From a virus, in the UHGV virus genome UHGV-0018639: a stretch of 64,000 bases of DNA. One strand, 5' to 3'. How positions within the stretch are numbered: position 1 is the stretch's first letter; each line of letters opens with the position of its first letter. The translations under genes and the position numbers were made by a program. This document shows positions 7,736 through 56,289 of the stretch, in pieces. The notes under the pieces are model-generated. The model saw only the letters and a list, made by a program, of their open reading frames with translations. It had not been told where the DNA came from and did no database searches.

Positions 7736-8468
7736 AAATCATTTTTCGGTTTGGTGCACACTGTCGGACGGCATAGGTGCCAATTCCTATTGCATCAGCT
7801 TCGTCTTCACTAACAGATACGTCGTACCATTGTTTTGCTAGCTGACGCATTGATCCTTTTTTGTCGCTTCTTGATCGCCCTTTAACCCCGCACTCTTGAC
7901 GCCAGACCCCTGTGTGACATAAAGTGTAGGCAATTCCTAACTCAAAGCAACACTCAATCAAAATTCCTTGAAGCCACGCAAGCTGTTGAAAAACATCAAC
8001 ACCCATCATACGTTTGCCTTCGCTTTCATTTTGAAGTTGAATATTTTCCAATGCCACTAAGTCAGGCTGCCAATTATGTAACATATTGACGAGCCAAACC
8101 TTTACAGCATTACTCCGCGCTATTGTATCAGGTAATTGAGTTTGGTAGGTTCCATATTTAATAAGTTCTTTGTCGTCAAAAATTGAGAATCCTGTGATGT
8201 GTGTTGCTTGATCGAGTGCAAGCACACGAAACACATTCTTCTTTTTTGGAACAATTTTAGATGTAGTTGCTTCTGTCTTATATACATTAGCCTCGCAGGT
8301 AGGGCATATTCGTTTTGCGCGAAGCTTTTTCCAAGGGGCGAATACGGAGTGCCCTTCTGGGCACTCGAATCGCATTTCTGTTTCAAGATTTGTGTATGTG
8401 TCGCTTATAACTTTCCAGCCGTCTTGCTCTAATTCCTCTTTAATTGAATCTAATGAAATTTTTGCCAT
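7725..8468 (-). CDS. RuvC-family Holliday junction resolvase with N-terminal zinc finger
   Basis: VLALDQATHITGFSIF matches the RuvC motif I acidic site. SEDEADAIGIG matches the C-terminal catalytic Asp motif. The N-terminus has a CPEGH...CPTC zinc ribbon. Confidence 0.65.
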   Translation of the reverse strand: MAKISLDSIKEELEQDGWKVISDTYTNLETEMRFECPEGHSVFAPWKKLRAKRICPTCEANVYKTEATTSKIVPKKKNVFRVLALDQATHITGFSIFDDKELIKYGTYQTQLPDTIARSNAVKVWLVNMLHNWQPDLVALENIQLQNESEGKRMMGVDVFQQLAWLQGILIECCFELGIAYTLCHTGVWRQECGVKGRSRSDKKGSMRQLAKQWYDVSVSEDEADAIGIGTYAVRQCAPNRKMISWE

Positions 8469-9720: not shown

Positions 9721-10983
9721 TCAATCTTTATTTTTCAAAATCAGATTGAGAATAATACCAGCTATAAGAGCAAGTGCAGTAGCGGAAATTGAAAAATCAG
9801 CGCCACCAATCGCAAGGCCGCTTATGCCGAGAGAAAGAACCGCAGAGACAATTATCAAGTTCTTTTGCTCATTCAAATCAACTTGCTGCAGCATTTTTAC
9901 GCCACTACAAGCAATAAATCCATAGAGAACAATTGCCGCGCCAGCAAAAACGCAAGCCGGGATTGAACTAATAAAAGCTTGGACCGGCACAAAGAAGCCC
10001 ATAAGTATCAATATAAATGCGGCGGTTCCGCTCACTTTCGCAGAAGCAACTTTGCTAAATCCAACACAAGCAACGCCTTCACCATAAGAGCAAGCGCCGA
10101 GTCCGCCAAGTAAACCACTAACAGCATTTGCAAGTCCTTCACCAGCAAAGATACGGTTAAGGCCGGGCTTTTTGTAAAGATCAATACCAATTATATTACT
10201 GAGCGCGGCGTGATCGCTAAGAGCTTCCATCATTGCACTTATAGTGTAAGCAATAAACAAAATTATAAGAGGAATAAGCTGCGGCAGTTCAATAAATTTG
10301 CCCCAATCAACGTGAGAAACCGCGAGGTCAGGCAATGCGAAAAGGGCCATATTTTCAAAGACGTTAAAATCGACAACAGGAAAAATCTTCGTGATTGTCA
10401 GAATAATTGCATAAATATAACCAACTAAAGTGCCAAGCAGGAACGGGAGAATCTTTATAATTCCTTTCGCATAATGTGAAAAGAGTGCAATTGCTATCAT
10501 TGTGATGATAGCTACACTAACGCCCCACATATTAGTTTCGCCATTTATCTGAACATAAGTCAAGATAAAAGGCATAAGGTTAATACCTATAACAACCGTG
10601 ACTGCGCCGATCAATGACTTAGGAAAAATTTTATATATATTTTCAACAGGAACACGACTAAAGATAAGACCAAAAATTGTATAAACAACCCAAATTACAA
10701 AACAGCCAATAATTGCGCCTTCATAACCACAAGAAGTAAGTGCAATTATGATAGGAGCGACAAAAGCGCCAGAGTTTGAAATGAACATTGGGGATTGTCC
10801 TTTTGTTATAAGAATATAAGCCAGAGTACCACAGCCCGCGCCAACGAGTGCACCAGATACGGCGACACCACAAATATTAGCAATGAGCGTTGTGGCAACT
10901 ATAATTGACAGCATCATTTGTATTGAGAATAATAAAAGCTGCCCGAATGGAATTTTATCATCTAAAGAATATTTCATTACCAA
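9721..10983 (-). CDS. nucleobase:cation symporter-2 (NCS2) family permease, uracil/xanthine permease-like
   Basis: About 12 TM segments. Spacing and motifs parallel UraA/PyrP: LGYIYA, EALSDH, and GLLGGLGACSYGEGVACVGFSKV matching GFFGSTPNTTYGENIGVMAITRV. Confidence 0.7.
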   Translation of the reverse strand: MVMKYSLDDKIPFGQLLLFSIQMMLSIIVATTLIANICGVAVSGALVGAGCGTLAYILITKGQSPMFISNSGAFVAPIIIALTSCGYEGAIIGCFVIWVVYTIFGLIFSRVPVENIYKIFPKSLIGAVTVVIGINLMPFILTYVQINGETNMWGVSVAIITMIAIALFSHYAKGIIKILPFLLGTLVGYIYAIILTITKIFPVVDFNVFENMALFALPDLAVSHVDWGKFIELPQLIPLIILFIAYTISAMMEALSDHAALSNIIGIDLYKKPGLNRIFAGEGLANAVSGLLGGLGACSYGEGVACVGFSKVASAKVSGTAAFILILMGFFVPVQAFISSIPACVFAGAAIVLYGFIACSGVKMLQQVDLNEQKNLIIVSAVLSLGISGLAIGGADFSISATALALIAGIILNLILKNKD

Positions 10984-11825
10984 ATCACCTTATATTTTAT
11001 TTTATTTGTTTTAGCTATTTGCCTTTTTAGAGGGTCTTTTTCCGTCCAATTTTTTATAGCGTATTGGAAATATTTAGATGACTTGGCTTTTTCTTTCCAT
11101 TTTTTTAGTTGTTTTATATCTTCTGGATTCGATTCCTCAAAAAAATGGCCTCCATGAGTCCAATGCCTATTTAGTTCAATAAATAAATCTTCCGATACGA
11201 TATAAAAATCACAAAAGAAAGGATACCGTTTTTCATCTTTATAATTTCTCAAAACATTTTCTTTTCCATATTGTTGACAAAGTTGTAAATATAAATCTTC
11301 CTCTGGTTTGGAAATTCTAAAACTATTATTTTTTCTTTTTGTCTCAGCTTGTTTTTTTAGGGTTTTTGGCCAATCCATATTTTTTGTACGCCATTTATAA
11401 AAATTTTCTAAAGATCCATATTTTTGTATCATGGTTTTATTTCTTTGGGCTATATTATGATAATTATGAGGATCTGGCCATAAGATTTGATTTGTGGCTT
11501 TAGTTTTTTCTTTTATTTTCTCGGCTTTTGCTGGATTAGAAACCCCATATTTTTGATAACAAGTTTTTTCAGCTTTCTTTTTTACGGAATCTAATTGATG
11601 GACATTATCTACTCCGTATTTTTTTTGGCAAGTGGCTCTTCGTCTTTGGTTAGAAACTTTAATTTGAGTTGGATCACGGGGTTTCATTCCTCGCTGCCAT
11701 CCTTGCTCTAAGTATTTTTCTAGCTCTGATGATAGGACTCTTTTATTTATTTGCCCATTGTTGATAAAAAGCCCTGACGAATGAGATTGGCTCATTCGTG
11801 AGTCGCCTCCCAGTCCTGAAGCCAT
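10977..11825 (-). CDS. homing-endonuclease-like protein: N-terminal KYGV-repeat basic region plus C-terminal PD-(D/E)xK-like motif
   Basis: Repeated QKKYGVDNV / QKYGVSNP / IQKYGSLENF motifs in a Lys-rich region. The C-terminal FFCDFYIVSEDLFIELNRHWTHGGH resembles the FDFAIF..EYNGEQHY nuclease core of the paralogues at 32037, 35326, 36184 and 43476. Confidence 0.35.
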   Translation of the reverse strand: MASGLGGDSRMSQSHSSGLFINNGQINKRVLSSELEKYLEQGWQRGMKPRDPTQIKVSNQRRRATCQKKYGVDNVHQLDSVKKKAEKTCYQKYGVSNPAKAEKIKEKTKATNQILWPDPHNYHNIAQRNKTMIQKYGSLENFYKWRTKNMDWPKTLKKQAETKRKNNSFRISKPEEDLYLQLCQQYGKENVLRNYKDEKRYPFFCDFYIVSEDLFIELNRHWTHGGHFFEESNPEDIKQLKKWKEKAKSSKYFQYAIKNWTEKDPLKRQIAKTNKIKYKVIW

Positions 11826-12298
11826 TTTATTACGTCTTCAATATTATCTACTAAAACGCCGCCTTGCTTAATAAGACCAACAGTATAAAGATTCTGATAA
11901 CAGAACTGACTCTCACCAATATCAAAACGCATTATTTCGGCTTTAGCATCATTGTATGTGCGACTTGCCATACGACTATCAGTACAAATACCGATAATCA
12001 TTTTCTTGTCTCCGCGCGCAATTTTTTCGTGAAATTTGCCAATTTCTGCACTTGTTCCAGAAGGAATCACATCGCCATCAATGCAAGCAACAAGAACATC
12101 AGTTTCATCCAAGCGTGCATTATCTCCATCCGCAATCTGCCAAGAGCTTGCACATTTTGTTTTATCATTTATTTCTTTATTTTCCAGAGGATTATAGAGG
12201 TTGATTCCGGGAATAGCATCACGAATTTGTGCGCTCCATTTCTCATTTCTCATTCTATCTCCTTCACAAAAGATTGGCCCCGCCAAATAAACATTCAT
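11792..12298 (-). CDS. nucleoside 2-deoxyribosyltransferase family protein
   Basis: MNVYLAGPIF, the N-terminal NDT motif. Acidic catalytic region DVLVACIDGDVIPSGTSAEIG. The likely start is the internal Met, which overlaps the upstream gene in an ATGA arrangement. Confidence 0.65.
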   Translation of the reverse strand: MNVYLAGPIFCEGDRMRNEKWSAQIRDAIPGINLYNPLENKEINDKTKCASSWQIADGDNARLDETDVLVACIDGDVIPSGTSAEIGKFHEKIARGDKKMIIGICTDSRMASRTYNDAKAEIMRFDIGESQFCYQNLYTVGLIKQGGVLVDNIEDVIKWLQDWEATHE

Positions 12299-12696
12299 TC
12301 GTCTATATCCTCCAAATAAATTATTTTTTTCTCTAATTGCTTTGCCCATTCAATTTCACGTTTTGTGGATTCACCAATATAGCCATTCTTGTTTATTACA
12401 AAAATCATATCAGACATTGAAATTTTAGCTAGATGCATACGGTCGAGCTGTTGTTTTTCTTTCTCTGTCATTGTATCACCGTAATGCCCATAAATCTCAG
12501 GACTTAGGACAATATAGCCTGCAATTGTAAATTCTTTGCGATATTGCTGAAACAAAGGAAGAAACTTAGTACTGCCACACAATGTAATAATGGGAAACTC
12601 ATTTTGGTAGTTCCGCACTAAAATTTTATTAGTTATTTGTTGTCCCACATTCATCCTCGATTCCCATTGCTGCACTAGCTGCTTTATAGCCCTCAA
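12295..12696 (-). CDS. NDT-superfamily / DUF4406-like protein
   Basis: IITLCGSTKF parallels the hhhhaGP nucleotide-binding start. The C-terminus MIFVINKNGYIGESTKREIEWA parallels the DUF4406 W-E-S-G-E-A motif. Confidence 0.4.
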   Translation of the reverse strand: MRAIKQLVQQWESRMNVGQQITNKILVRNYQNEFPIITLCGSTKFLPLFQQYRKEFTIAGYIVLSPEIYGHYGDTMTEKEKQQLDRMHLAKISMSDMIFVINKNGYIGESTKREIEWAKQLEKKIIYLEDIDE

Positions 12697-12883
12697 TATA
12701 GCCCATTGTATGTTCTTTATTCAGCCTTTCTTGAATATTCTTATAAACTTGCGGGAATAAACTTGCTATCACAAACTCAAAAGAAAGTTCAAGCTCATCT
12801 GTGTTTCCATTATACGTTTTTTCTACTTGCTCAATTACTCGTTTTATGTGCATGAATCGAACCTTATCTAAATTTTCGTCCAT
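12629..12883 (-). CDS. hypothetical protein
   Basis: 84-aa ORF overlapping neighbours; start uncertain. Confidence 0.25.
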   Translation of the reverse strand: MDENLDKVRFMHIKRVIEQVEKTYNGNTDELELSFEFVIASLFPQVYKNIQERLNKEHTMGYIEGYKAASAAMGIEDECGTTNN

Positions 12884-13461
12884 AATTTCTCCTTTCCATA
12901 ATGTAGGGTTAAAGCGCCAAATGAATTACCTAATGCAGCAACTAAAATTTTTCGGAAGGAAATTGGTATAGAGCTTGCTGCTGAATAAAACATATTAGCA
13001 ATGCAGTGATCAAAACCACAATAAACAAATAAAAATACAGGGAGCATTATAGCAAGAAGAGACTTTGTTCGTTTGAATCCTTCAACTGCGCAATAGACAC
13101 ATACTCCGCACAAGTAGGAGCTAAAGAGTAAATTGGCATATGACATTTCTGCTTTTGAAGAAGCAACTAAATCGGCCAAAAATGGATTTACCCACCACAC
13201 CAATAAACCCAATAGTGCGGCGCCAGCGAAATTTGCAATAAGCATTATACTTAAATCAATAAGATCTGCGCCATCACCTACATAAGCAATGCGGCCAGTG
13301 TAAAGCGGAAGGCCAAGTTCTAAAATTGAGACAAGCCCAAAGCTAAATAACAATGCACCCAATATCTTATTTTGGCTAATGAGGTTGGCATATCCGCCAA
13401 CCCCAATTAGCATACCTGCAAAGAAAGCAGGAATTATATTATAGCTATCTTTTTTTATCAT
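12868..13461 (-). CDS. formate/nitrite transporter (FNT) family channel, short form
   Basis: FNT signature GFDHCIANMF matches FocA GFEHSIANMF. ELGLPLYTG matches GAELFTG. C-terminal LGNSFGAL matches LGNIVGG. Consensus promoter just upstream. Confidence 0.6.
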   Translation of the reverse strand: MIKKDSYNIIPAFFAGMLIGVGGYANLISQNKILGALLFSFGLVSILELGLPLYTGRIAYVGDGADLIDLSIMLIANFAGAALLGLLVWWVNPFLADLVASSKAEMSYANLLFSSYLCGVCVYCAVEGFKRTKSLLAIMLPVFLFVYCGFDHCIANMFYSAASSIPISFRKILVAALGNSFGALTLHYGKEKLWTKI

Positions 13462-13492
13462 ATTTATATTATACTAAAATTTTGATGAAAAA

Positions 13493-14002
13493 TCAAATTT
13501 TGAGTTCACAAATGTGCGCTTTTTCCAAAGTTTGGTGAACATCTATAAGGCGCTGATTACGAGAGCCACGGAATGGCAAAGTTAAATCACGCTGCTCAAG
13601 AATAAAAGGGCCATCTACCACAACATCGCAAAGTTGGAGTGTTGTTGAAATGCGGCGAGGGGGATTGAAATCCTCCCAGTCCAAGTGGTAGCCAGTATAG
13701 AGCCAAATGTCTTTATTAGGAAATTTTTCTTTGATTTCTCTTAACAACTTATAGATAGTATTGTTGTTTTGTGGCTCAAGTGGATGACCGCCAGAAAGAG
13801 TGATTCCTTTTATCCAAGGCTTTGAAAGAGCGTCAAATAGTTCTTCTTTCGCGGTGTCATCAAAAAGTTTACCTGCGCAGAAATCCCAAGTTTCAGGATT
13901 ATGACATTCTTTGCAATGGAGAGAACATCCTGAAACCCAAAGAACGACACGCACGCCAAGACCATTTGCGATGTCGCATTTTGTTATTTTGATATAATTC
14001 AT
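13493..14002 (-). CDS. nrdG: anaerobic ribonucleoside-triphosphate reductase activating protein (radical SAM)
   Basis: CSLHCKEC (Cx3Cx2C) cluster in VVLWVSGCSLHCKECHNPETW. Start taken as the internal Met MNYIKITKCDIANG, overlapping the nrdD stop. Confidence 0.8.
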   Translation of the reverse strand: MNYIKITKCDIANGLGVRVVLWVSGCSLHCKECHNPETWDFCAGKLFDDTAKEELFDALSKPWIKGITLSGGHPLEPQNNNTIYKLLREIKEKFPNKDIWLYTGYHLDWEDFNPPRRISTTLQLCDVVVDGPFILEQRDLTLPFRGSRNQRLIDVHQTLEKAHICELKI

Positions 14003-14982
14003 TATGATTCTCCCAAATGTAAGACACGCTCTTTTATTTCTTGGGTACGGCCAAAATTCCAAAAATTAGAGCCAATATAGCCGCAAGTACGACGTGCAAC
14101 GTTCAAGGTAGAATGATCACGGTTGCCGCAATTTGGACAATACCACTCCATATTATCATCAATGAGAATTTCGCCATCGAAGCCACATTTCTGACAGTAG
14201 TCGCTCTTTGTATTAAGTTCAGCATACATTATGTTATCATAAATAAACCTATAAAGCTCTAAGACGGCAGGAATATTGTTTTGTAAATTAGGAACCTCTA
14301 CATAGCTTATTGCACCGCCCGGACTAAGTTTTTGAAACTCAGCCTCGAAAGCAAGTTTATCAAAAGCATTGATTTCTTCAAAAACAGGAACATGATAACT
14401 ATTTGTAATATAATTACGGTCATGCCCATCGAGTTTAATAAATATATCATTGCCAAATCGCTGTTTTAGGCAACGCGCAAACTTATATGTTGTACTTTCA
14501 ATAGGAGCACCATAGAGAGAATAATCAATTTTTTCAGCAGCTTTCCATTCAGCACACTTCTCATTTAAACGTGCCATTACTTCAAGAGCAAAAGGTTTCC
14601 CATCAGTCTGTGTATGGCTATGCCTTGTCATATATTTTACGCACTCATAAAGACCAGCATATCCAAGTGAAATTGTTGAATAGCCATTATGAAGCAATTT
14701 ATCAAGCCTCTCACCTTTTTCAAGACGAGCGAGTGCGCCATTTTGCCAAAGAATAGGGGCAACATCACTAAGGGTTCCCTCAAGACGCTTATGTCTAAGT
14801 TGAAGTGCTTTGTGGCATAATTCAGTACGCTCTTCAAATAGCTGCCAAAACTTATCAATATTACCGCCTGAACTAAAAGCTAAATCTGGTAAACTAATTG
14901 TAACAACACCTTGGTTAAAACGACCATAGTATTTTGGGTTATTATTTTCATCAACATAAGGAGTTAGGAAGCTCCTGCACAT
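14002..14982 (-). CDS. nrdD: anaerobic ribonucleoside-triphosphate reductase, exon 2 (C-terminal half with glycyl-radical domain)
   Basis: Glycyl radical motif RRTCGYIGS near the C-terminus. Zn ribbon CQKCG...CPNCG. The exon boundary lies upstream of the listed Met. Confidence 0.8.
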   Translation of the reverse strand: MCRSFLTPYVDENNNPKYYGRFNQGVVTISLPDLAFSSGGNIDKFWQLFEERTELCHKALQLRHKRLEGTLSDVAPILWQNGALARLEKGERLDKLLHNGYSTISLGYAGLYECVKYMTRHSHTQTDGKPFALEVMARLNEKCAEWKAAEKIDYSLYGAPIESTTYKFARCLKQRFGNDIFIKLDGHDRNYITNSYHVPVFEEINAFDKLAFEAEFQKLSPGGAISYVEVPNLQNNIPAVLELYRFIYDNIMYAELNTKSDYCQKCGFDGEILIDDNMEWYCPNCGNRDHSTLNVARRTCGYIGSNFWNFGRTQEIKERVLHLGES

Positions 14983-15742
14983 ATTATCCCATATCCCTAT
15001 GGGTACTGACTATATCTTCATTCCACTAAAAAGTGGAGTTGTCTTCCGCTTCGAGTGAGTGCCTATCTCTCACCCTACTCCCTTACATTCATCAGGGATA
15101 GTCGATACACTTCATTCATCATAATAAAAATTATAAGGAGTATTATTTGTCCGTTGCTGTAAAAGAAAGGTCCTGATACGATGTCTATCAATACCAGTTT
15201 TACGTTCGCATTCTCTCATTGACTTATAGTGAAAACGTTCTTTTGTCTCTTTATTTTCAGCAATTATCCAAATTCCACGCCCTTTATGCGGATTTATATA
15301 ATTGTTTTCCTGATAAGCCTTTCTAATATTTTCGCTGTGAGATACGGCCCGCAAATTAGAAAGTTCATTATGTGATTTATTTCCATCAATATGGTCTACA
15401 ACTGTACAATTATCAAGAAAAACTTCCGCCATAAGGCGATGAACGCGAGTTCGTATTCGATTGCCACCAAGACAAAGAACTACGTGTTGATACATATCAA
15501 TGCCAATATATGGACTAATTATTCTTCCCGTTTTAAAATTGATTATTTGAGCATCTTCATTTATACCAAATTGATTATTCAAACTTGGAATGGGCATAAA
15601 TTCTTTCATTATCTCACCTCCTTTTCATATTTATGATATATGATGAATTTTAGCACGGCCTCATCTGTTCTAGACCTAGCCGTTAGCCGCATTTGCGACA
15701 CCCGCGGGCGCGGTTCAAAAGATTTTATATGAGCTGCAGTTT
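14983..15742 (-). mobile_element. group I intron in nrdD carrying an HNH homing endonuclease ORF (boundaries approximate)
   Basis: About 760 nt separating the two nrdD halves. Non-coding flanks are structured; the flank motif ...gggatagtcgatac... recurs in the ORF-less insertion at 23919-24132. T4 nrdD (sunY) also has a group I intron. Confidence 0.6.
15112..15609 (-). CDS. HNH homing endonuclease (intron-encoded)
   Basis: HIDGNKSHNELSNLRAVSHSEN HNH motif. N-terminal IINFKTGRIISPY is AP2/NUMOD-like. Confidence 0.75.
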   Translation of the reverse strand: MKEFMPIPSLNNQFGINEDAQIINFKTGRIISPYIGIDMYQHVVLCLGGNRIRTRVHRLMAEVFLDNCTVVDHIDGNKSHNELSNLRAVSHSENIRKAYQENNYINPHKGRGIWIIAENKETKERFHYKSMRECERKTGIDRHRIRTFLLQQRTNNTPYNFYYDE

Positions 15743-16927
15743 TCACTTACCCATACAAGGATAACAACGACCCTTACCAGTTTTGTCTTTTTTTAATTCT
15801 AACATCATTTTTTCAGAAATAATATCAGGGACAAGACGCTTTGCTGTACATTTTGCTGCAAGTTCTGTTAAGTAAAAATACTTATCGCCCGGCTGTAAAT
15901 TATCAGGTTCAAGGACATAAAGTAACTTAGGAAATGCAGGCGTAATATAAACGCCTTTTTCATTCTTGAAACCTAAAATACGTTGTTTAATAAACTCCTC
16001 TATCAGCATTGCTAATTCATTCTTATATTCTTCTGTCTCGTTTAAATACATAAATACAGAAAGAAATGGTGCTTGACCATTTGTTGTTGTCATTGAATTG
16101 ACTTGATAGTTGAAAGTCTGAACAGCATCAACAACTTCTTTTTTTGTATCAAGTTGCGCATACTTATGCGCATTCTCATCGTCAAATCCCCAATCTTTAT
16201 ACTTCTTGAGATAAGCTTCATAAGAGCTTCTAACAAAAGGTGCAAGATGTGTAAGAGTAATAGTAGCACCACCATATGAAGAAGAAGCGACGCCAAGAAT
16301 TACTTGCGTTGCAATCGTAGAAGCTGTCAGAATTCTATGCGGCTTTTCAATTTTAACGTTATTAATTACAGTACCATTTTGAAGGACATCCTCTAAGTTA
16401 ATAAGATCGCAATTATGGAGGGTCTTCTGGCCGAAATAATCAATATCGTGGAAATGTATAATACCTTTCTCATGCGCGTCCACAATCTCAGGGGGAAGAA
16501 GAAATCGTTTAGAGATGTCTTCGCTAACAATACCGGCCATATAATCACGCTGTGTCGTTACAAGGTCGGCATTTTTATTTGAATTTTCAGCGTTCCAATA
16601 ATCACTTGTACCACTGATTAGTTCAAGTAAATCTTTGTCTGTTGTATTGCCTTCGCGCGCGAGTCTATGTTTATACCTGTATTCAACATAGCGCTCAGCC
16701 ACGTCTTTTCTTGAACTAGCCATAAGCCGCTCAACTACTAAGTCTTGAATTTCTTCAACGCTCAAATCTCTATTAAGCTTTTCTATTTGAGTAGCCACCA
16801 TTCGTGCCTTATTTTTGGCATAAGATGTTTCACGTCCATCTACTTCCAAAAAGGCTTTGAGAATGGCGACTCTAATTTTCTCTTTATCAAATGGAACCGT
16901 AGTTCCATCACGTTTTATGACGTACAA
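15743..16927 (-). CDS. nrdD: anaerobic ribonucleoside-triphosphate reductase, exon 1 (ATP-cone plus N-terminal catalytic half)
   Basis: ATP-cone VIKRDGTTVPFDKEKIRVAILKAF. Conserved NrdD core GIIHFHDIDYF. Last codons before the stop are probably intron-derived. Confidence 0.8.
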   Translation of the reverse strand: MYVIKRDGTTVPFDKEKIRVAILKAFLEVDGRETSYAKNKARMVATQIEKLNRDLSVEEIQDLVVERLMASSRKDVAERYVEYRYKHRLAREGNTTDKDLLELISGTSDYWNAENSNKNADLVTTQRDYMAGIVSEDISKRFLLPPEIVDAHEKGIIHFHDIDYFGQKTLHNCDLINLEDVLQNGTVINNVKIEKPHRILTASTIATQVILGVASSSYGGATITLTHLAPFVRSSYEAYLKKYKDWGFDDENAHKYAQLDTKKEVVDAVQTFNYQVNSMTTTNGQAPFLSVFMYLNETEEYKNELAMLIEEFIKQRILGFKNEKGVYITPAFPKLLYVLEPDNLQPGDKYFYLTELAAKCTAKRLVPDIISEKMMLELKKDKTGKGRCYPCMGK

Positions 16928-19728: not shown

Positions 19729-20855
19729 AAGCGAGTAGGAAAGAGTATGTGCTCGACAACTTACCGCACATAGTTTCTTATGCCAGATTTACTCTGTTGC
19801 GGTCTGGACTATACCATCAATTTCATTGTTTCCAATGAAAAAGTCCTTATTATAGTCTCTGAACGTTTTTCTTATCTCAATATATTTTCTATTCATACCA
19901 AAAGGCTTATTATAAACTAGAGCGATTAGTTTTAGGATATTGAACTGATTAGCGGTTTCAACTCTATATAAGCTATCTTCAGTTTTTCTTATATGTAAAT
20001 CTTCCATAAAGAAATTTTCTACTAAGATTTTTTCAATCCATTTGATAAATTCTTCAGATGCTGATACTATATAAAATTGAGCACCGCCATAAGAAGTTTT
20101 ACTGACACACCCATCACCGTCTATTATACCACGAATAATGTAAGGCAAATATCGCTTTTCTTGCTCATACAATTGCGGCGCCGGTATAATATATGTTTTA
20201 TTCTTTATTATACCATAACGGGCAGCCTCAGCTTGAAGACCCGGCCTATTTATCAATACCCTATATCGAGTTTGCTTTCCAGCTTGAGGATAGGCCTTAT
20301 AAGTTATTCCAATTCCTTTAGCTATAAAAGCAATAACATCTTCGTCCACCATATCCAACCCTAAGCCATCTCGATCGCTCAATAGATATCCATCCGTAAG
20401 CAGTAGCCCGATTAGATATGCATCGAACGGACTTTTGATTTCAGATAACGAATAGGTATATCCTCGACGATTATCTTGCGCTTGCCGTATAATTTCTTGA
20501 TATTCATCTGGATAATACTTTTTTACCTTGTCGGTTATAGACTTCTTTGTTTTATAACCATATCGACCCATTAGCTCTGAAACCGATGCCCCATTCTTAT
20601 ATTCTTCAACTAATTTTAGTTCATCTTCTTTTGATATTTTCTGATAACCCATAGTATATCCCTCCTAAGAATAAGTAGCCCTATTCAAATAGAAATACAC
20701 TAAAATAAGAAACTTCGCTGCGGATTATCCAATTCTAAATGATTTTACTATACCCTCTCTCTTTCTGAGAGGCCGCGATATTATTGCTAATATCGTTTAG
20801 TTATTTAGACTCTAAGGAAGTCCCCGCAATTTCAAGGATTTATACTCGTCTTGTA
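19729..20855 (-). mobile_element. intervening sequence in DnaE-like gene carrying a LAGLIDADG endonuclease (probable group I intron; boundaries approximate)
   Basis: Polymerase N- and C-terminal parts are contiguous ORFs on the same strand separated by ~1.1 kb. About 200 nt of structured non-coding flank lies at 20653-20855. Confidence 0.45.
19789..20652 (-). CDS. LAGLIDADG homing endonuclease (double-motif)
   Basis: Two LAGLIDADG motifs: LIGLLLTDGYL and IIRGIIDGDGCV. N-terminal HTH-like region. Confidence 0.8.
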   Translation of the reverse strand: MGYQKISKEDELKLVEEYKNGASVSELMGRYGYKTKKSITDKVKKYYPDEYQEIIRQAQDNRRGYTYSLSEIKSPFDAYLIGLLLTDGYLLSDRDGLGLDMVDEDVIAFIAKGIGITYKAYPQAGKQTRYRVLINRPGLQAEAARYGIIKNKTYIIPAPQLYEQEKRYLPYIIRGIIDGDGCVSKTSYGGAQFYIVSASEEFIKWIEKILVENFFMEDLHIRKTEDSLYRVETANQFNILKLIALVYNKPFGMNRKYIEIRKTFRDYNKDFFIGNNEIDGIVQTATE

Positions 20856-29155: not shown

Positions 29156-30058
29156 TTACTCTTGATTTTGAGCAAGTTCAGCATATCTTTTTTCCTCTTC
29201 TCCAGAGGAATAGAGTCTCGTGGATTTTATATCATAAAAGTTTTTCATTGCTTGATATTTTCTTTCCATATAAATAGAATTGGGCACATACAGAATCTCA
29301 AAAAGTCTTAAGATAGTGTCTTTTTTATAAACTTGTATTGTATAAAAATGGTCGCCTTGACTGAGCGTCGCTGTGCTGGTCGAAAGAGAGGTAATAATAC
29401 CATATTTATTCAGAAGAACTTGCCGCATCCATTCAATAACTTCTTTTCTTGCTCCACAAATATACCAATTATAATGATATTTTTTATAATCAGTCCAAAT
29501 ACATCCATCTCCATCAAAATATCCTCGAATATAAGAGATAAAATATTGTTCATCAAGAAAAGTCGGCGGTGTTAGAGTAAAAGTTTTACGAGGTATTATT
29601 CCATAATGGGCTAAATCTTGTTTGATAGTATGACTACAAACTCTTAGCCGGCTATACTCACAACCTGAATTATTTGTATAATGCTGAATAGGTCCCTCAT
29701 ATTTTAGTTCTTCTTTTATCTTATACAATATTTCTTCATCGGATCTTTGAATATCTATTGTAAAATGATTCGTATCTTTTGATACTCCGCCATCGGAAGC
29801 TAAAAATCCAAGAATATAAGCCATATTATGAGATTGTATCTTGAAATAATCGTCATTAACATTATAAGCTCGACATTCTTTTGCAGCTTCTTGCCGATTA
29901 CGAACCTTTACTCCCCATTTTTTCAAGTATCTTTGAATTGTCGCTCCTGAAGCTCCTCCAACATCTCGGCCAATAGCATTTACGCCTCTTTTTAGAACTG
30001 TATAATTATAAATTATAAATTCTTTTTGTTCATCTGTAAATGAAATAGATTTACCCAC
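29156..30058 (-). CDS. LAGLIDADG homing endonuclease (double-motif)
   Basis: ILGFLASDGGV and IRGYFDGDGCI. Confidence 0.8.
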   Translation of the reverse strand: MGKSISFTDEQKEFIIYNYTVLKRGVNAIGRDVGGASGATIQRYLKKWGVKVRNRQEAAKECRAYNVNDDYFKIQSHNMAYILGFLASDGGVSKDTNHFTIDIQRSDEEILYKIKEELKYEGPIQHYTNNSGCEYSRLRVCSHTIKQDLAHYGIIPRKTFTLTPPTFLDEQYFISYIRGYFDGDGCIWTDYKKYHYNWYICGARKEVIEWMRQVLLNKYGIITSLSTSTATLSQGDHFYTIQVYKKDTILRLFEILYVPNSIYMERKYQAMKNFYDIKSTRLYSSGEEEKRYAELAQNQE

Positions 30059-50348: not shown

Positions 50349-50434
50349 GCGGGACTGGTGTAATTGGTAGCCACATTTGATTTAAGCTCAAATGGCCTTT
50401 GGTCGTAAGGGTTCGAGTCCCTTGTCCCGCACCA
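50349..50434 (+). tRNA. tRNA-Leu(UAA), type II
   Basis: Acceptor gcgggac/gtcccgc. Anticodon arm tttga-tttaagc-tcaaa. Long variable arm. 3' CCA encoded. Confidence 0.7.
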
Positions 50435-50501
50435 ATTGCCGTTTTCAGTGGCGGCTTAGAAACAGTTCTCAAAGAAGTATCAAAAAGAAAGGAGAAAATG
50501 A

Positions 50502-51404
50502 ATGTCATTTTTCGTAAGAACAGTAACTGATCGGTATGGGGATACAAATACTTATCCTCGTTGGGGCAGAATAGTGGGGTGCGCTATAGGGGCACTACTT
50601 GTTCTAATTATAATTCTCTCTTGTTTTACTAAAGTTCCTACTGGCAATACTGGTATTGTCACTACATTTGGTAAGGTTGAGAATTATACATTGGATTCAG
50701 GCTTTCATCTAAAAGCTCCGTGGCAGAAGATAGTTAAGATGGATAATCGAGTACAGAAGCAGAGTATTGATTTGATGTGTTTCTCTTCTGATATTCAGGA
50801 AGTCTCTATGACTTATACAATTAACTTCCAGATTAGTAAGAGCGATGCAATGACGATTTATTCTACCATCGGCACTCATTATTATGAAACCGTTATTATG
50901 CCTTGTATTACCGAGTCAGTTAAGACAGTTTGTGCACGATATACCGCAGAAGAGCTAGTGGGCATGAGAAGTGAACTTGCTTCAGCAATAGAGGAAGATC
51001 TTTCTGAGAAATTAATTAATTACAACATAGAGCTTGTTTCTACTTCTGTTGAGAACATGGATTTCACTGATGTCTTTACTGATGCTGTTGAAGCAAAGCA
51101 GGTTGCAGCACAGAATAAGCTCACCGCACAGACTCGTGCTGAGCAGGAAGTTATTGAAGCCGAAGCAGCGGCTAAGGTTCAGGTAATTCAGGCACAGGCT
51201 GATGCAGATGCAATGGTGGCTAAGGCTCAGGCCGAAGCAGAAGCGACTCGAATTCGTGCAGAAGCCGAAGCAGAAGCCAACGCGAAGGTTGCCGCGTCTC
51301 TAACAAATGCGCTAATTGATTATACTTATGCACAGCATTGGGATGGTAAGTATCCTACCTATTATGGTGGTAATGGTACGACTCCTGTTATCGATCTTAG
51401 ATAA
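50502..51404 (+). CDS. SPFH/band-7 (prohibitin/HflC-like) membrane protein
   Basis: N-terminal TM. VPTGNTGIVTTFGKV..GFHLKAPWQKIVKMDNRVQ SPFH core. Ala/Glu-rich coiled-coil tail. Confidence 0.65.
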   Translation: MSFFVRTVTDRYGDTNTYPRWGRIVGCAIGALLVLIIILSCFTKVPTGNTGIVTTFGKVENYTLDSGFHLKAPWQKIVKMDNRVQKQSIDLMCFSSDIQEVSMTYTINFQISKSDAMTIYSTIGTHYYETVIMPCITESVKTVCARYTAEELVGMRSELASAIEEDLSEKLINYNIELVSTSVENMDFTDVFTDAVEAKQVAAQNKLTAQTRAEQEVIEAEAAAKVQVIQAQADADAMVAKAQAEAEATRIRAEAEAEANAKVAASLTNALIDYTYAQHWDGKYPTYYGGNGTTPVIDLR

Positions 51405-51643
51405 ATAAATGAGCTGGCATCTCAATAAACTGCCATTAATATGGGTCAGTAGCGAATCGGCAAACGCAACGGGCTGTAAACCCGTCTCCTTCGGGAATAA
51501 TTGGATCGACACCAATCTGACTCACCAAGACGCAGCGGGTGTTAGATTTTCTACTGGGGAATACTGTGTCTAATATAGAGAAAATCATTTTTGTGAAATT
51601 CAAGTATATTCTAGCTAAATATACCGTAAAAGCCGGATTATAT

Positions 51644-51719
51644 GCCCAGATAGCTCAGTTGGTAGAGCAGGGGACTGAAAATTCCCGTGTCGCTGGTCCA
51701 ATTCCAGCTCTGGGCACCA
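51644..51719 (+). tRNA. tRNA-Phe(GAA)
   Basis: gcccaga acceptor. D-arm gctcagttggtagagc. Anticodon loop ctGAAaa. T-arm gctggtccaattccagc. CCA encoded. Confidence 0.8.
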
Positions 51720-51891
51720 TTTTGGGATTGTTTACTGCTTCTTGTTCCCTTGATCGTGAAAATGCATGAGTAGCGATTAAAAAACATCTAAGCGGCGTGC
51801 ATCGTTGGCCATCTGAGGGCTGCGTTAAGGCTTAAAAGGCCACAATCGATTGGGGTTGGTAAACCTCCTGCGGGGAAGCTTCCATTATTAT

Positions 51892-51974
51892 GGGCAAGTG
51901 GTGGAACTGGTAGACACAACAGTCTTAGACGCTGTCGCTTCGGTATAGGGGTTCGAGTCCCCTCCTGCCCACCA
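51892..51974 (+). tRNA. tRNA-Leu(UAG), type II
   Basis: Anticodon arm acagt-ctTAGac-gctgt. Long variable arm. T-arm ggggttcgagtcccc. One A-C mismatch in the acceptor stem. Confidence 0.6.
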
Positions 51975-52094
51975 TAAGTCTCCAAGAGGATGGATTTCGG
52001 CTAAACTACCACCGGCGCACAATGTGTGATATGTGGCTTTGTCATTTGTGGAGACTATAATAAATAAAAACGAAAGTAAGCCGACTTTTGAAAT

Positions 52095-52178
52095 GCAGGA
52101 TTGGTGGAATTGGCAGACACGGTGGATTCAAGTCCCACTGCTTTTAGCATAAGAGTTCAAGTCTCTTATCCTGCACCA
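52095..52178 (+). tRNA. type II tRNA, probably tRNA-Leu(CAA)
   Basis: Acceptor gcaggat/atcctgc. Leu-like D-arm tggtggaattggcagacac. Anticodon loop ttCAAgt with one mismatch closing the stem. Long variable arm. Confidence 0.55.
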
Positions 52179-52307
52179 TTGGTGGTCACTAGGGTTGTAT
52201 TCTTCTCAAGCCAAGTGAGTAGTGTTGATGAAACGAAATAGATGGTAAACAAATAATTGAGATTAAGTATGCAACCCGTTGTATTATTTTAATGAAAGGA
52301 GATAAAA

Positions 52308-52892
52308 ATGTCAGCAAATTTTTATATTAGCGATATCCATTTTGGGCATAAAAATATAATAAAATTTGATCATCGTCCTTTTAGTAGTGTTGATGAAATG
52401 AACAGCATACTTATTGCAAATTGGAATGATATAGTTGGTCACAATGATAATATCTACGTTCTTGGTGATTTTTGCTGGGGTAAATCTGATGAGTGGATTG
52501 ATATTCTGTCTCAACTCAAAGGTAATAAGTATCTCATTGCTGGTAATCACGACTTGCGTAATCCTCCTTCAGATGTGCGGCGTTTCTTTCAGGATTGGCG
52601 CGACTACAAAGAAATTTTTGACAATGGCCGCAAGGTTATAATGTGCCATTATCCAATTCCGTTCTATAAGTCAGACTATAATTCAGATACTTATATGTTG
52701 TTTGGTCATTTGCACACAACATTTGAGAATGGGTATATTGAGGATTTGCGCGAACGGATAGAGCACGATCCATATGAGCGTTCAGCAAAAAATCTTTGCC
52801 AGTTTTATAACGTTGGTTGTATGATGCCTTGGATGGAATACAAGCCGCACACGTTGGATGAGATTGTTGAGGGGTTTGGTAAATATCACTAA
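52308..52892 (+). CDS. calcineurin-like metallophosphoesterase
   Basis: DIHFGH, LGDFCWG, GNHDL, CHYP..GHLH motifs. RBS aaaggagat. Confidence 0.7.
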   Translation: MSANFYISDIHFGHKNIIKFDHRPFSSVDEMNSILIANWNDIVGHNDNIYVLGDFCWGKSDEWIDILSQLKGNKYLIAGNHDLRNPPSDVRRFFQDWRDYKEIFDNGRKVIMCHYPIPFYKSDYNSDTYMLFGHLHTTFENGYIEDLRERIEHDPYERSAKNLCQFYNVGCMMPWMEYKPHTLDEIVEGFGKYH

Positions 52893-52902
52893 ACCCACAT
52901 AT

Positions 52903-52991
52903 GCGGGATGAACTCAGACGGCTCTGAGACCGGTCTTGAAAACCGTGGGCAGGTGAAAGCTTGTGGGGATCGACACCTCCGTCCCGCGCCA
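52903..52991 (+). tRNA. atypical type II tRNA-Ser(UGA) with 8/4-like acceptor/T-stem and 6-bp D-stem (allo-tRNA/tRNA-Sec-like architecture)
   Basis: Anticodon arm ccggt-cttgaaa-accg is nearly identical to E. coli tRNA-Ser(UGA). The 5' gcgggatg pairs with cgtcccgc (8 bp). D-arm ctcaga-cggc-tctgag is a 6-bp stem with a 4-nt loop. The variable arm is 20 nt. T-stem gggg/cctc is 4 bp with T-loop atcgaca. Ends gCCA. Confidence 0.6.
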
Positions 52992-53087
52992 GTATGCGGA
53001 GTCAACCAGTAAGGTGCTGGACTCGCCTGCTAAGCGATGTGTAGCTATTCGGCTATTTGGTTCGTGTCCAAGGCTCCGCGCCAATAT

Positions 53088-53163
53088 GTGTCCTTAGTCC
53101 AATCGGTAGAACAACAGACTGTTAATCTGTAGGGTATAGGTTCAAATCCTATAGGACACGCCA
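53088..53163 (+). tRNA. tRNA-Asn(GUU)
   Basis: Acceptor gtgtcct/aggacac. Anticodon arm acaga-ctGTTaa-tctgt. T-arm ataggttcaaatcctat. CCA encoded. Confidence 0.75.
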
Positions 53164-53166
53164 TAT

Positions 53167-53243
53167 GCGCCATTAGCTCAGTTGGTAGTAGCACTTGATT
53201 TTTAATCAAGGAGTCCGCGGTTCAAGTCCGCGATGGCGCACCA
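53167..53243 (+). tRNA. tRNA-Lys(UUU)
   Basis: Acceptor gcgccat/atggcgc. Anticodon arm cttga-ttTTTaa-tcaag. T-arm cgcggttcaagtccgcg. CCA encoded. Confidence 0.75.
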
Positions 53244-53264
53244 TAATTTTTGGAGGAAGTAAAA

Positions 53265-54385
53265 TGAAATTAACAGAAAAGGGGGTTGCCGCGTTTGCCG
53301 CAGCGTTAGAGCACTGCCCCAATGAATCTTTTTCAGCGGCCAGCCTTTCAGCAAAGTGCGGCGCCTCTATTTCTGCAGCTACACTCAATGGTATTGTCAA
53401 TCAGGGACTTATGACTCGACTTGGTGGTTCGCCTGTCAAGTTTGAATTAGTGCCTAACGCGAAAGACTTGTATAGCAAGGCGCGCGAAGATAAGCCAGCC
53501 AACGAAAATCTTCGTAAAGCACAGGCCGCGAAAAATGATGAGTTTTATACTCGGTATCAGGATATCGAAAAAGAAGTCTTACAGTATGACTTGCGTGGCA
53601 AAAAGATTCTGTGCAATTGCAATGATGGGTTAGATAGTGAATTTACAAATTTCTTTATGGCAAATTTTGAAGCACTTGGACTCGCCGAAGTCGTTTGTCT
53701 GAGTTATGAGAAAGAAAAGCTTGCTTTCAAAACGGTTAGGCGCACACCCACAAAGCCCGATATAAAAGTTGAAGTAGCACGGATTCCCCTTAAAGGAAAC
53801 GGGGCTTTTGATTCATGCGAAGGTCGAGAAGCTTTAGCGGCCTGTGATGTTGTTATCACTAATCCGCCGTTCAGTCGGTTTCGTGAATTTGTCAATTTGA
53901 TTTTGTCTTACAAGAAAGACTTTTTGATAATTGGCAGTAAAAACGCTATTACTTATAAAGAGTTCTTTCCTCTTCTAATGAATGGCAAAGTTCATATTGG
54001 CAATTATAATGTTTCTACTTTTAAACAGCCCGATGATACTGAGAAGAGATTTGGAAACATTGGTTGGTTTACGACCCTTCCTGTCGCAAAGGCCACACAG
54101 CCAATTCCTTTAACAGCAACCTACGATTCCGTCAATTATCCTGCCTATGATAATTTTCATGCAATCGAGGTAAGCCGCACAGCTAACATTCCAAAAGATT
54201 ATGATGGTGTGATGGGCGTTCCTATTTCATTCCTTGATAAGTTTTGTCCTACTCAATTTAAAATTGTTGGATGGAGCAGACATAATGATGAAGGAATGGA
54301 CGGCGGATATTGGACGGGCGGTTGTGCAGATGCTACTATAAATGGTAAACGAGTTTATCGTAGAATTTTGATTCAGAAAATTTGA
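53265..54385 (+). CDS. N6-adenine DNA methyltransferase
   Basis: Catalytic motif IV DVVITNPPFS. AdoMet-binding-like ILCNCNDG. RBS ggaggaag upstream of MKLTEKG. The ORF-track start at 53195 lies inside tRNA-Lys and was rejected. Confidence 0.6.
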
Positions 54386-54410
54386 TTTTTATCAAAATTT
54401 TCGATATAAT
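54382..54410 (+). promoter_or_regulatory. sigma70-like promoter (conserved phage motif)
   Basis: aaaaTTTGATTtttatcaaaattttcgaTATAATatatatagaaagttgagag. Confidence 0.55.
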
Positions 54411-54553
54411 ATATATAGAAAGTTGAGAGAAATGGTTCTAACAAGCCAGCGTGCGCGCGAGTAAAAGTTGTTAGTAAGCGGTTGGCATACGTGATAAGCC
54501 ATTGCCCCAGCGAGAAGATTTAATAAATCTTCTTTGTTGGCGGTGTTCAATTT

Positions 54554-54627
54554 CGGGGATGTGGTGTAATGGTAGCACACTTGATTTGGGGTCAAGAAGA
54601 GTGGTTCAAATCCAACATTTCCGGCCA
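54554..54627 (+). tRNA. tRNA-Pro(UGG)
   Basis: Anticodon arm cttga-ttTGGgg-tcaag. Acceptor cggggat/atttccg with two G-U pairs. Imperfect T-stem. CCA encoded. Confidence 0.55.
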
Positions 54628-54634
54628 TAAAAAT

Positions 54635-54721
54635 GCTGAGTTCCCATAGTGGTCGATTGGAGCGGTTTTGTAAGCCGCAGACTTCGTGTCCGCATCAGTT
54701 CGAATCTGATACTCAGCTCCA
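54635..54721 (+). tRNA. 87-nt tRNA with long variable arm and UGU (Thr-type) anticodon in the 7-nt loop register
   Basis: Perfect acceptor gctgagt/actcagc. Perfect T-arm atcag-ttcgaat-ctgat. Anticodon arm gcggt-ttTGTaa-gccgc, which needs a U-G closing pair; GUA lies one nt 3'. 15-nt variable region agacttcgtgtccgc. CCA encoded. Confidence 0.55.
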
Positions 54722-54725
54722 CTAT

Positions 54726-54801
54726 AAGAGAGTAGCCCAATAGGTAAGGCAGCAGTCTCCAAAACTGAAGATTAAAGGTTCAATTCCTTTCTCTCTTGCC
54801 A
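54726..54801 (+). tRNA. tRNA-Trp(CCA)
   Basis: Acceptor aagagag/ctctctt. Anticodon loop ctCCAaa. T-arm aaaggttcaattccttt. CCA encoded. Confidence 0.65.
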
Positions 54802-54843
54802 ACAATTTCATTTTTTCATTTTTCAAATTTCCTTTCTTAAAAT

Positions 54844-54872
54844 TTGACTTTTTCAAAAAATCTTGATATAAT
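54844..54872 (+). promoter_or_regulatory. sigma70-like promoter driving the large noncoding region and tRNA-Met
   Basis: aaaaTTTGACTttttcaaaaaatcttgaTATAATatatac. Perfect -35 and -10 boxes with a 17-nt spacer. Confidence 0.6.
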
Positions 54873-54896
54873 ATATACATAAGATAAAGAAAAGAA

Positions 54897-55616: not shown

Positions 55617-55689
55617 GGCAGGAAGAGAAGGTTCTCCGTTTGGCCTCATAAGCCAGACTTCGTAGGTTCGATTCCTACTCCTGCAACCA
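55617..55689 (+). tRNA. tRNA-Met(CAU) (possibly initiator-like; alternatively a lysidine tRNA-Ile2)
   Basis: Anticodon arm tttggc-ctCATaa-gccaga. T-arm gtaggttcgattcctac. Acceptor ggcagga/tcctgca with a 1:72 G-A mismatch. CCA encoded. Confidence 0.6.
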
Positions 55690-55714
55690 AGGAAGATGCT
55701 TCTTCCTCCGTTTT
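55690..55714 (+). terminator. rho-independent terminator
   Basis: ggaaga-tgc-ttcttcc followed by tccgtttt. Confidence 0.55.
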
Positions 55715-55857
55715 AAAAAATGTCTTGAACGACAGGAGGTTTTGCTTATGGACATAACAAAATCTAATGAGGACTTTAGTCCAACGAACAAGGCAAAGAG
55801 TTGGGCTTCTCTATAAAAAAGCCCTCGTTTAAAAAAAATGAAAGGAAGTAAGAAAAA

Positions 55858-56286: not shown

Positions 56287-56289
56287 GAA

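Follow-up and report, generated by a model that had tools for sequence, protein, structure and literature searches.

A short FNT channel gene joined to nrdD and nrdG in gut and rumen phages: a candidate formate supply for class III ribonucleotide reductase

The formate channel FocA of Escherichia coli works in contact with a glycyl-radical enzyme: its N-terminal helix binds PflB and is needed for translocation, and removal of this helix cripples the channel (PMC11841067). Both T91 and H209 of FocA are required for formate uptake, and variants without the His export only (PMC11841067). Formate, nitrite and hydrosulfide (HSC) channels of the FNT family typically have 25-32 residues ahead of the first transmembrane helix (TM1), and the paper that classified the family makes no mention of phages or viruses (PMC5525234). 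Here we describe a gene for a 197-amino-acid (aa) FNT channel in a 64,000-nucleotide (nt) stretch of the virus genome UHGV-0018639 (hereafter the window, at its full length), which follows the genes for a class III ribonucleotide reductase (RNR), nrdD, and its activase, nrdG. Phage FNT genes are already on record (PMC8115048); only their coupling to nrdDG appears to be undescribed. A recurrent, phage-specific cassette here brings together a channel family and an enzyme that were each known already, and the channel is of an uncharacterised minimal subfamily.

Class III reductases differ in their reductant. The formate-type NrdDs, among them those of E. coli, L. lactis, phage T4 and Prevotella copri, have neither the third active-site Cys nor the Glu found in the thioredoxin type, and their finger-loop Met pairs with a bottom-face Cys (PMC4493059, PMC11226230). 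The P. copri enzyme was found experimentally to require formate, and its third-Cys position is Asn435 (PMC11226230). We found no publication on FNT-nrdDG coupling in phages in a search of open-access full text and bioRxiv, in which some queries could miss 'formate/nitrite' and whose scope stopped short of subscription-only literature. Databases auto-label relatives of the window protein 'Formate/nitrite transporter [Caudoviricetes sp.]' or '[Siphoviridae sp.]'.

A short FNT channel beside a class III reductase

Reading the minus strand of the window from 16927 to 12868, the order is nrdD exon 1, an intron, nrdD exon 2, nrdG and the FNT gene (Table 1). As the sequence-only reading had it, the FNT gene lies directly 3' of nrdD-nrdG on the same strand: nrdD was identified by PF13597, Gly_radical and ATP-cone matches, nrdG, which itself comes after nrdD, by TIGR02491, and the gap between nrdG and the FNT gene is 31 nt. 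That reading had also recognised a short FNT-family protein by the motif GFDHCIANMF. The open reading frame (ORF) at 12868..13461 carries this motif, and its product matched PF01226 (Form_Nir_trans; TC 1.A.16) with an E value of 8.8e-22 and 78.1 bits, well above the gathering cut-off of 34.6, over positions 22-232 of the 240-position profile.

A monomer model from AlphaFold2 (AF2), built from a 16-sequence alignment, had a predicted local distance difference test score (pLDDT) of 85.2 and a predicted template modelling score (pTM) of 0.82. All elements of the six-helix FNT fold were present and in order: TM1 (residues 9-29), TM2a (32-48), the Ω-loop (LPLYT), TM2b (54-61), TM3 (67-91), the P-helix (97-105), TM4 (108-132), TM5a (136-148), the S-loop (GFDH), TM5b (153-162) and TM6 (169-196), with TM2 and TM5 both broken, by the Ω-loop and the S-loop, as in the FNT fold. 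Foldseek searches of the PDB returned only FNT channels as top matches (HSC, NirC, FocA, PfFNT and LciA; probability 1.0, query TM-score 0.72-0.81), of which the hydrosulfide channel HSC ranked best, followed by NirC and FocA.

We mapped the pore through a HMMER alignment to Vibrio cholerae FocA, using E. coli FocA numbering (3KCU) and published definitions (PMC5525234). The central constriction, F75/F202/H209/A212 in FocA, is F39/F145/H152/A155 in the window protein ('FFHA'); the cytoplasmic slit, L79/L89/T91/V175, is L43/L53/T55/V122; and the invariant TM6 Asn, N262, is N179. Constriction, Thr/His pair and TM6 Asn all match FocA, as does N156 (FocA N213), while D151 stands for FocA E208 and G119 replaces N172. 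The label 'FocA-like' given earlier thus holds for family, fold and pore residues and fails as a statement of orthology: the protein scored far below the cut-offs of TIGR04060 (51.7 vs 290.1 bits), NF008069 (18.9 vs 440) and TIGR00790 fnt (51 vs 232.3), and a FocA orthologue was rejected. The N-terminal gating helix is absent, with 8 residues before TM1 in the AF2 model.

The window protein belongs to a large uncharacterised subfamily of short FNTs of about 170-220 aa that lack the N-terminal gating helix. A profile of the protein and its homologues, searched against 1.84 billion cluster representatives (50% identity), gave 4062 matches at E <= 1e-3 and 501 at E <= 1e-30, and the best 150 were nearly all 180-220 aa long. 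Across 150 collected members, the positions of F75, L89, T91, F202, H209 and A212 were invariant and those of L79 and N262 nearly so; the N172 position was Gly in 140 of the 150, and the N213 position was Asp in most. Phage members keep the pore residues invariant despite divergence to about 30% identity. The ratio of nonsynonymous to synonymous substitution rates (dN/dS) of the FNT gene was 0.10-0.16 across the window and four relatives, and the gene is therefore under purifying selection. One relative (L003/L010; L numbers denote surveyed loci) has a TGA at the Trp194 codon and a tail four residues shorter. At a further set of phage loci (L050, L060, L072, L073, L081, L082 and L084; FNT at about 9900-10600) the match within one ORF covers only the C-terminal half of the profile, a pattern that suggests frameshifts, stop-codon recoding or insertions inside the gene.

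Members of the subfamily are common among metagenome-assembled genomes (MAGs) from gut and rumen, including those of Prevotellaceae, Bacteroidales, Lachnospiraceae, Oscillospiraceae, Bacilli and Methanomassiliicoccales, and occur on phage contigs as well. Bacterial and archaeal members (L087-L166) resemble the window channel in sequence (30-40% identity), in length (180-220 aa), in the invariant pore residues and in the Gly at N172; unlike it, they showed no adjacency to nrdD or nrdG in 80 loci, and some stand within purine operons. The purine-operon arrangement was seen in seven bacterial loci from Lachnospiraceae, Oscillospiraceae and Ruminococcaceae MAGs (L162 531-12594, L114, L130, L145, L159, L165 and L166), for example in the order purE-purC-purF-purM-FNT-purN-purH-purD-purL in L162, with the channel gene immediately 5' of the formyltransferase gene purN. 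Purine synthesis is another nucleotide pathway that consumes formate (C1), and this gene order suggests that the purine-operon FNT may import formate for C1-dependent purine synthesis. The presence of bacterial short FNTs inside purine operons hints, independently of the phage loci, at a role of the subfamily in bringing in formate for anabolic use.

Association of phage FNT genes with nrdD and nrdG

We assembled 79 distinct phage short-FNT loci from a profile-guided scan of IMG/VR and scored linkage within ±10 kb, searching six-frame ORFs with phmmer against the window NrdD and NrdG and then with profile hidden Markov models (HMMs) built from the phage matches. Searching by phmmer with the window NrdD alone undercounts: the divergent NrdD of L037 was missed and was recovered by Pfam and then by the profile. 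nrdD lay within 10 kb of the channel gene in 56 of the 79 loci and nrdG in 49; the linked genes were always on the FNT strand, and mostly abutted or overlapped the FNT ORF. On the cellular side, a scan of one genome per prokaryotic species gave at least 562 matches, and in the best 80 bacterial and archaeal loci, examined by phmmer and profile HMMs, neither nrdD nor nrdG was found within 10 kb (56/79 vs 0/80, Fisher's exact test p = 1.2e-24). The association of phage FNT genes with nrdD is thus strong, and the idea that phages copied a ready-made host operon was rejected, since none of the 80 bacterial and archaeal loci carries nrdD or nrdG.

Three gene orders were found. In 33-34 loci the order is nrdD-FNT-nrdG (DFG), with the channel gene wedged between reductase and activase and overlapping ends; the window's own order, nrdD-nrdG-FNT (DGF), occurs in 11 and FNT-nrdD-nrdG (FDG) in one, and truncated versions occur on short contigs. 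Searching in the reverse direction, we found that four of 80 phage loci with an NrdD 54-71% identical to the window's type carry a short FNT, in each case directly after nrdD or nrdG. Each of these four FNTs is nearest to a different FNT lineage, and three of the lineages are bacterial. The FNT gene is an optional add-on to phage nrdDG and, when carried, is usually placed in the nrdDG operon. No nitrite or sulfite reductase genes were seen alongside the FNT gene in the phage loci, where the recurrent partners are nrdD and nrdG, and the neighbours of ten unlinked phage FNTs included no second recurrent partner. Two loci without nrdDG nearby have the FNT gene beside a Hydrolase_2 gene and RecA (L005 3252-4401) and beside RlaP and a PolyA_pol/HD protein (L007 66-647).

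The linked NrdDs are of the formate type by signature, judged by the criteria of PMC4493059 and PMC11226230. The spliced window NrdD reads ...CMGCRSFLTPYVDENNNPKYYGRFNQG, that is, CMGCRSF...GRFNQG, with its Asn aligned to T4 N311 and P. copri N435, and all 40 of the 40 complete FNT-linked NrdDs have MGCR in the finger loop and Asn in place of the third Cys. Compared with known enzymes, the uninterrupted window-type NrdD of L001 scored 459 bits against 9d3x, 377 against T4, 207 against P. copri and 31 against T. maritima. The NF006732 cut-off of 657 bits is for a whole NrdD, and the two exons of the window were scored separately (Table 1). The earlier premise that the class III RNR is a formate user accordingly finds support in the Met-Gly-Cys finger loop and in the Asn that replaces the third Cys. 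About 20 residues after the radical Cys, the NrdDs of L017, L022 and most DFG loci read GRGNICPV, where P. copri has NLSFS, with Ser in place of the Cys of NICPV.

A single broad group of phages, of about 50-170 kb, accounts for many of the linked loci, with DnaE upstream and dUTPase or ThyX-like genes downstream, and in a neighbour-joining (NJ) tree the DFG channels form a single virus-only clade. Linked FNTs nonetheless occupy at least 5-7 separate positions in that tree (the window clade, L012, L013, L014, L182, L197 and L222), each beside different bacterial sequences. At 50% identity, 25 FNT clusters include phage members, and 11 of the 25 are linked to nrd genes. Other phages have orf381 and orf84 in common with the window as flanking genes, and their FNT is of a different clade, at a different position and accompanied by a different type of NrdD. 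In a close relative of the window (L003/L010, IMGVR_UViG_3300045988_162796), nrdD has been swapped for a P. copri-like copy (27-42% identity, finger loop FSTMGCRTA), while nrdG (95% identical) and the FNT gene (94% identical) were kept. Taken together, the gene orders, tree positions, nrdD replacement, clade turnover and dN/dS argue against a single frozen accident.

Formate supply as the proposed role, and its alternatives

We consider it probable, at roughly 0.65, that the channel supplies formate to the phage class III RNR by uptake during infection. A minimal FNT channel of the pentameric type would be made together with the phage NrdD and NrdG; an NrdD of this type oxidises one formate to CO2 for each ribonucleotide reduced; formate or formic acid from the gut or rumen lumen would enter the infected cell through the channel, pulled by consumption at the RNR; and dNTP synthesis for a genome of about 130 kb would thereby not be limited by the host's formate production. 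Formate is available outside cells in the gut and rumen, and by a general estimate from cell volume and concentration, many copies of a ~130-kb genome need far more formate than a cell's standing pool. The suggestion in the sequence-only reading that the phage boosts formate supply for dNTP synthesis gains support from the PF01226 match, the fold, the linkage to nrdD and the formate-type NrdDs, and the Thr and His of the uptake type are invariant in the phage channels, as in all 150 short FNTs compared. From these we infer formate as the substrate, a net inward flux and a limit set on phage replication by formate supply.

Several observations weigh against formate supply as the role of the channel. 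FNT substrates are not readable from sequence, FocA, NirC-beta/gamma and HSC all being FFHA (PMC5525234). Since the window FNT is without the N-terminal helix, gating must differ from that of FocA, or, by analogy with FocA, activity could be low. An FNT gene was present at only four of the 80 phage nrdD loci sampled, so the majority of phages that have a class III RNR do without it, and about 23 of the 79 phage short FNTs, some of them on short contigs, have no nrdD within 10 kb. In the P. copri-like NrdDs of DFG loci, the second residue past the diagnostic Asn is a Cys (NICPV). Independent events are also much fewer than loci, because the DnaE...dUTPase synteny shared by many linked loci makes locus counts overstate independence, and the FNT tree, made by NJ from sequences that are short and divergent, is rough.

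With a constriction common to formate, nitrite and HS- channels (PMC5525234), the channel could instead carry another small anion or acid, such as nitrite, hydrosulfide, lactate or bicarbonate/CO2, and serve, for example, to remove inhibitors, protecting oxygen- and NO-sensitive glycyl-radical or Fe-S enzymes, or to vent CO2/bicarbonate. The order of the Foldseek matches, with HSC ahead of NirC and FocA, fits such a role, as do the unusual subfamily residues (Gly at N172, Asp at N213 in most) and the interpretation of the sole published phage FNT as a nitrite transporter (PMC8115048). We regard it as unlikely all the same: nitrite or sulfite reductase genes are missing from the surroundings of phage FNTs, the only small-anion substrate of the nrdD/nrdG products is formate, the purine-operon setting in bacteria points to formate too, and CO2 passes membranes without a channel. 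If the adjacency is instead functionless, the FNT gene would have been captured once beside nrdDG in the ancestor of a large group of gut and rumen phages and handed down within a conserved module for replication and nucleotide metabolism, and it could be a moron of general benefit to the cell, for instance in pH or formate homeostasis. The DnaE upstream and the dUTPase and ThyX-like genes downstream that most DFG loci share, the single virus-only clade of their channels and the 23 of 79 phage FNTs that are not beside nrdD speak for such an origin. It fits poorly with three gene orders, with linked FNTs at five to seven or more tree positions, several beside bacterial sequences, with a linkage that outlasts replacement of nrdD in L003/L010, with a channel gene wedged between nrdD and nrdG with overlapping ends, and with pore residues that stay invariant at ~30% identity under a dN/dS of ~0.1; nor can a copied host operon explain the arrangement, which none of the 80 bacterial loci has. 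We therefore think it rather improbable.

A membrane permeabiliser resembling a holin or viroporin, acting in lysis timing or exclusion, would likewise be a small multi-pass membrane protein, possibly with a separate promoter, and on one unlinked contig (L005) the FNT gene stands two genes downstream of the Hydrolase_2 cell-wall hydrolase that gave rise to the idea. The selectivity-filter residues of a narrow hydrophobic pore are, however, all invariant, which would be unexpected in a holin, and the gene lies mostly in an early nucleotide/replication module rather than in a lysis cassette; with pore conservation and module context both against it, the holin idea is unsupported and we hold it to be highly improbable. 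Formate supply to NrdD remains our preferred reading, and it has a bolder form that we find doubtful, in which phages of gut and rumen anaerobes took short FNT channels repeatedly and independently into their nrdD-nrdG operons because formate supply is rate-limiting for anaerobic phage DNA synthesis, and in which the channel, without the gating helix, may dock NrdD at the membrane in a formate-channelling metabolon. Such docking of NrdD may be likened to that of PflB at FocA, both being glycyl-radical enzymes.

The locus in its phage and beside known systems

Table 1. Features of the nrdD-nrdG-FNT locus in the window
Feature	Coordinates	Strand	Basis
nrdD exon 1 (ATP-cone and N-terminal half of class III RNR, ends ...YPCMG)	15749..16927	minus	PF03477; PF13597 positions 1-262; NF006732 396.5 bits
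Group I-type intron, 769 nt	14980..15748	minus	precise absence in L001, L002 and L004; splice-site features
HNH homing endonuclease ORF, 165 aa, inside the intron	15112..15609	minus	PF13392 HNH_3 34.1 bits vs cut-off 24.8
nrdD exon 2 (starts CRSFL...)	14002..14979	minus	PF13597 positions 264-562; PF01228; NF006732 444.5 bits
nrdG, radical-SAM activase of NrdD, ~169 aa from ATG 14002	13493..14002	minus	TIGR02491 173.7 bits vs 126.1
Promoter-like TTGATT-17-TATAAT	13468..13496	minus	consensus scan, 10/12 matches
Short FNT channel, 197 aa	12868..13461	minus	PF01226 78.1 bits; AF2 model; Foldseek
orf84, conserved 84-aa ORF, 16-nt overlap with the 3' end of the FNT gene	12629..12883	minus	no Pfam match

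The boundary of nrdD exon 1 was fixed by comparison with the uninterrupted nrdD of L001, and exon 2 contains the Asn that stands for the 'third Cys', the cysteines of the Zn ribbon and RTCGY, the glycyl-radical motif. The most probable nrdG start is ATG 14002, which overlaps the stop codon of nrdD: the TIGR02491 alignment begins at residue 22 of the 189-aa nrdG ORF and the L003 homologue aligns from residue 21. The sequence-only reading had placed the FNT gene in the same transcription unit as nrdDG. Strand, the 31-nt gap and the lack of any terminator-like site between nrdD and the FNT gene on the minus strand make this plausible, with the qualification that a promoter-like element precedes the FNT gene. 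Six nucleotides separate the end of this TTGATT-17-TATAAT from the FNT ATG; the window and L001-L004 (at 7960-8000 there) conserve the two hexamers and differ in the spacer. The promoter scan overall found sites no more often than expected by chance. The FNT start has no Shine-Dalgarno sequence, while the neighbouring HNH ORF and orf84 have strong GGAG sites. Conserved hexamers and the missing Shine-Dalgarno sequence leave room for a further transcript of the FNT gene itself, possibly leaderless, which may exist besides read-through from nrdDG and which we offer as a lead only.

The insert in nrdD is a mobile intron, probably of the group I type. Its insertion point is precisely the boundary between the codons for Gly and the catalytic Cys in the finger loop (MG/C), and L001, L002 and L004 have a single uninterrupted 720-aa nrdD that reads ...YPCMGCRSFL... 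across the junction. The splice junctions read ...GGU/AAGUG...AUAUG/UGC, with the 5' exon ending in U and the intron in G. Rfam RF00028 scored 20.9 bits (E 0.008) against a gathering score of 50, the model being split by the ORF, and within this sub-threshold alignment the conserved group I core GAAGAUAUAGUC was found. We accepted the intron on the presence/absence polymorphism that restores the frame and on the splice-site features, not on the Rfam score. Its stretch 15072-15104 (33 nt) is 100% identical to the T4 nrdD intron, and a strong GGAGG ribosome-binding site lies 5' of the HNH ORF. Insertion at the same site as in T4 was rejected, as the Gly and Cys codons of the T4 MGC are contiguous in exon 2. 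In several other phage loci (for example L049, L058, L059, L068 and L072) nrdD lies in two ORF pieces, each without the MGCR motif, for which reason the finger-loop site may have been hit repeatedly by insertions.

Other insertions are scattered through the window, which holds several homing-endonuclease insertions without counterpart in its relatives. The gene for the Pol III alpha subunit, dnaE, is split into ORFs of 834 and 486 aa by an insertion of about 1.1 kb (19729-20855) that carries a LAGLIDADG ORF (19789-20652, minus), whereas L009 and L010 have about 30 nt between the two dnaE parts; the window has another LAGLIDADG gene at 29156-30058. In L011 the dUTPase gene is broken by an insertion of about 1.25 kb (13907-15157) that the window and the other relatives lack. 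A 282-aa DUF7487 gene (10977-11825, minus) stands between a deoxyribosyltransferase-like gene and the NCS2 permease gene described below; its absence from all four relatives suggests a free-standing mobile gene, perhaps endonuclease-like. DUF7487 ORFs also flank the FNT gene in L020.

The phage to which the window belongs is large and uncultivated, with related contigs of 75-133 kb; the window also encodes DnaE, DnaB, GyrA, dUTPase and a cluster of 13 tRNA genes (50349-56922, plus: Leu x3, Tyr, Phe, Ser, Asn, Lys, Pro, Thr, Trp, Met and Gln). GC skew changes sign at about 46-47 kb, where the direction of transcription switches. Here and in most loci the FNT gene neighbourhood is an early nucleotide-metabolism/replication module, not a lysis cassette. 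The conserved orf84 directly follows the FNT/nrdG cassette in 15 phage loci. Farther 3' of the FNT gene come two nucleoside 2-deoxyribosyltransferase-like genes and then an NCS2 nucleobase permease (9721-12696, minus, for the group): the permease scored 204 bits with the uracil permease model, under the equivalog cut-off, and lies 3' of the genes for the Nuc_deoxyrib_tr and DUF4406-like proteins. This trio is limited to the window's own phage clade (L008-L011). The FNT and the NCS2 permease make two transporters in one nucleotide module, and could import inputs for DNA precursors. No cultured close relative was found: a megablast search with 12 kb against INPHARED gave only the 33-nt match to the T4 nrdD intron, and tblastn with the FNT protein found two unannotated human-faecal phage fragments.

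If formate supply is indeed its role, the channel would open a new category among phage auxiliary genes, that of transporters whose cargo is not a nutrient element but a co-substrate passed straight to a phage-encoded enzyme. It would suggest that viral DNA synthesis in the anoxic gut and rumen can be limited by formate as the reductant as well as by the reductase; formate is a traded intermediate in these habitats, so that phage infection may tie into the formate economy of the community. It would also give a first functional handle on the very large short-FNT subfamily (more than 500 clusters at 50% identity, E <= 1e-30), provide in a natural minimal FNT without an N-terminal gate material for studying pore opening, and offer RNR research genomic evidence from many phages on the in vivo reductant of the enzyme.

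Among known systems, the nrdD-nrdG genes of T4 share with the window a formate-type NrdD (377 bits), the MGC finger loop, the equivalent of Asn311 and the glycyl-radical motif, as well as a group I-type intron in nrdD with the identical 33-nt core stretch. The T4 intron carries the GIY-YIG endonuclease I-TevII, whereas that of the window carries an HNH endonuclease and sits at another site, between the Gly and Cys codons. An FNT gene, present in the window, is missing from T4, whose host produces and channels its own formate.

FocA of E. coli and V. cholerae has in common with the window channel the Pfam family, the fold, the FFHA constriction, the L/L/T/V slit, the Thr/His pair and the TM6 Asn, and in the focA-pflB operon, as here, the channel gene adjoins one for a glycyl-radical enzyme with formate chemistry. 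FocA has 280-285 aa against 197 in the window FNT, in which TM1 begins at residue 9, the PflB-binding helix is absent (PMC11841067), the loops are shortened and Asn172 is Gly. The partners also work in opposite senses, PflB producing formate and NrdD consuming it.

The closest phage parallel is the cyanophage focA-nirA pair (Gazitúa et al. 2021, PMC8115048), in which, as in the window, a phage FNT gene lies beside that of an enzyme using the transported anion. The cyanophage focA is a full-length, host-derived gene, 86% identical to that of Prochlorococcus, found in a marine setting together with a nitrite reductase and read as serving nitrite uptake (PMC8115048); the window FNT, in contrast, belongs to the short subfamily, is carried by gut and rumen phages and is paired with nrdD and nrdG.

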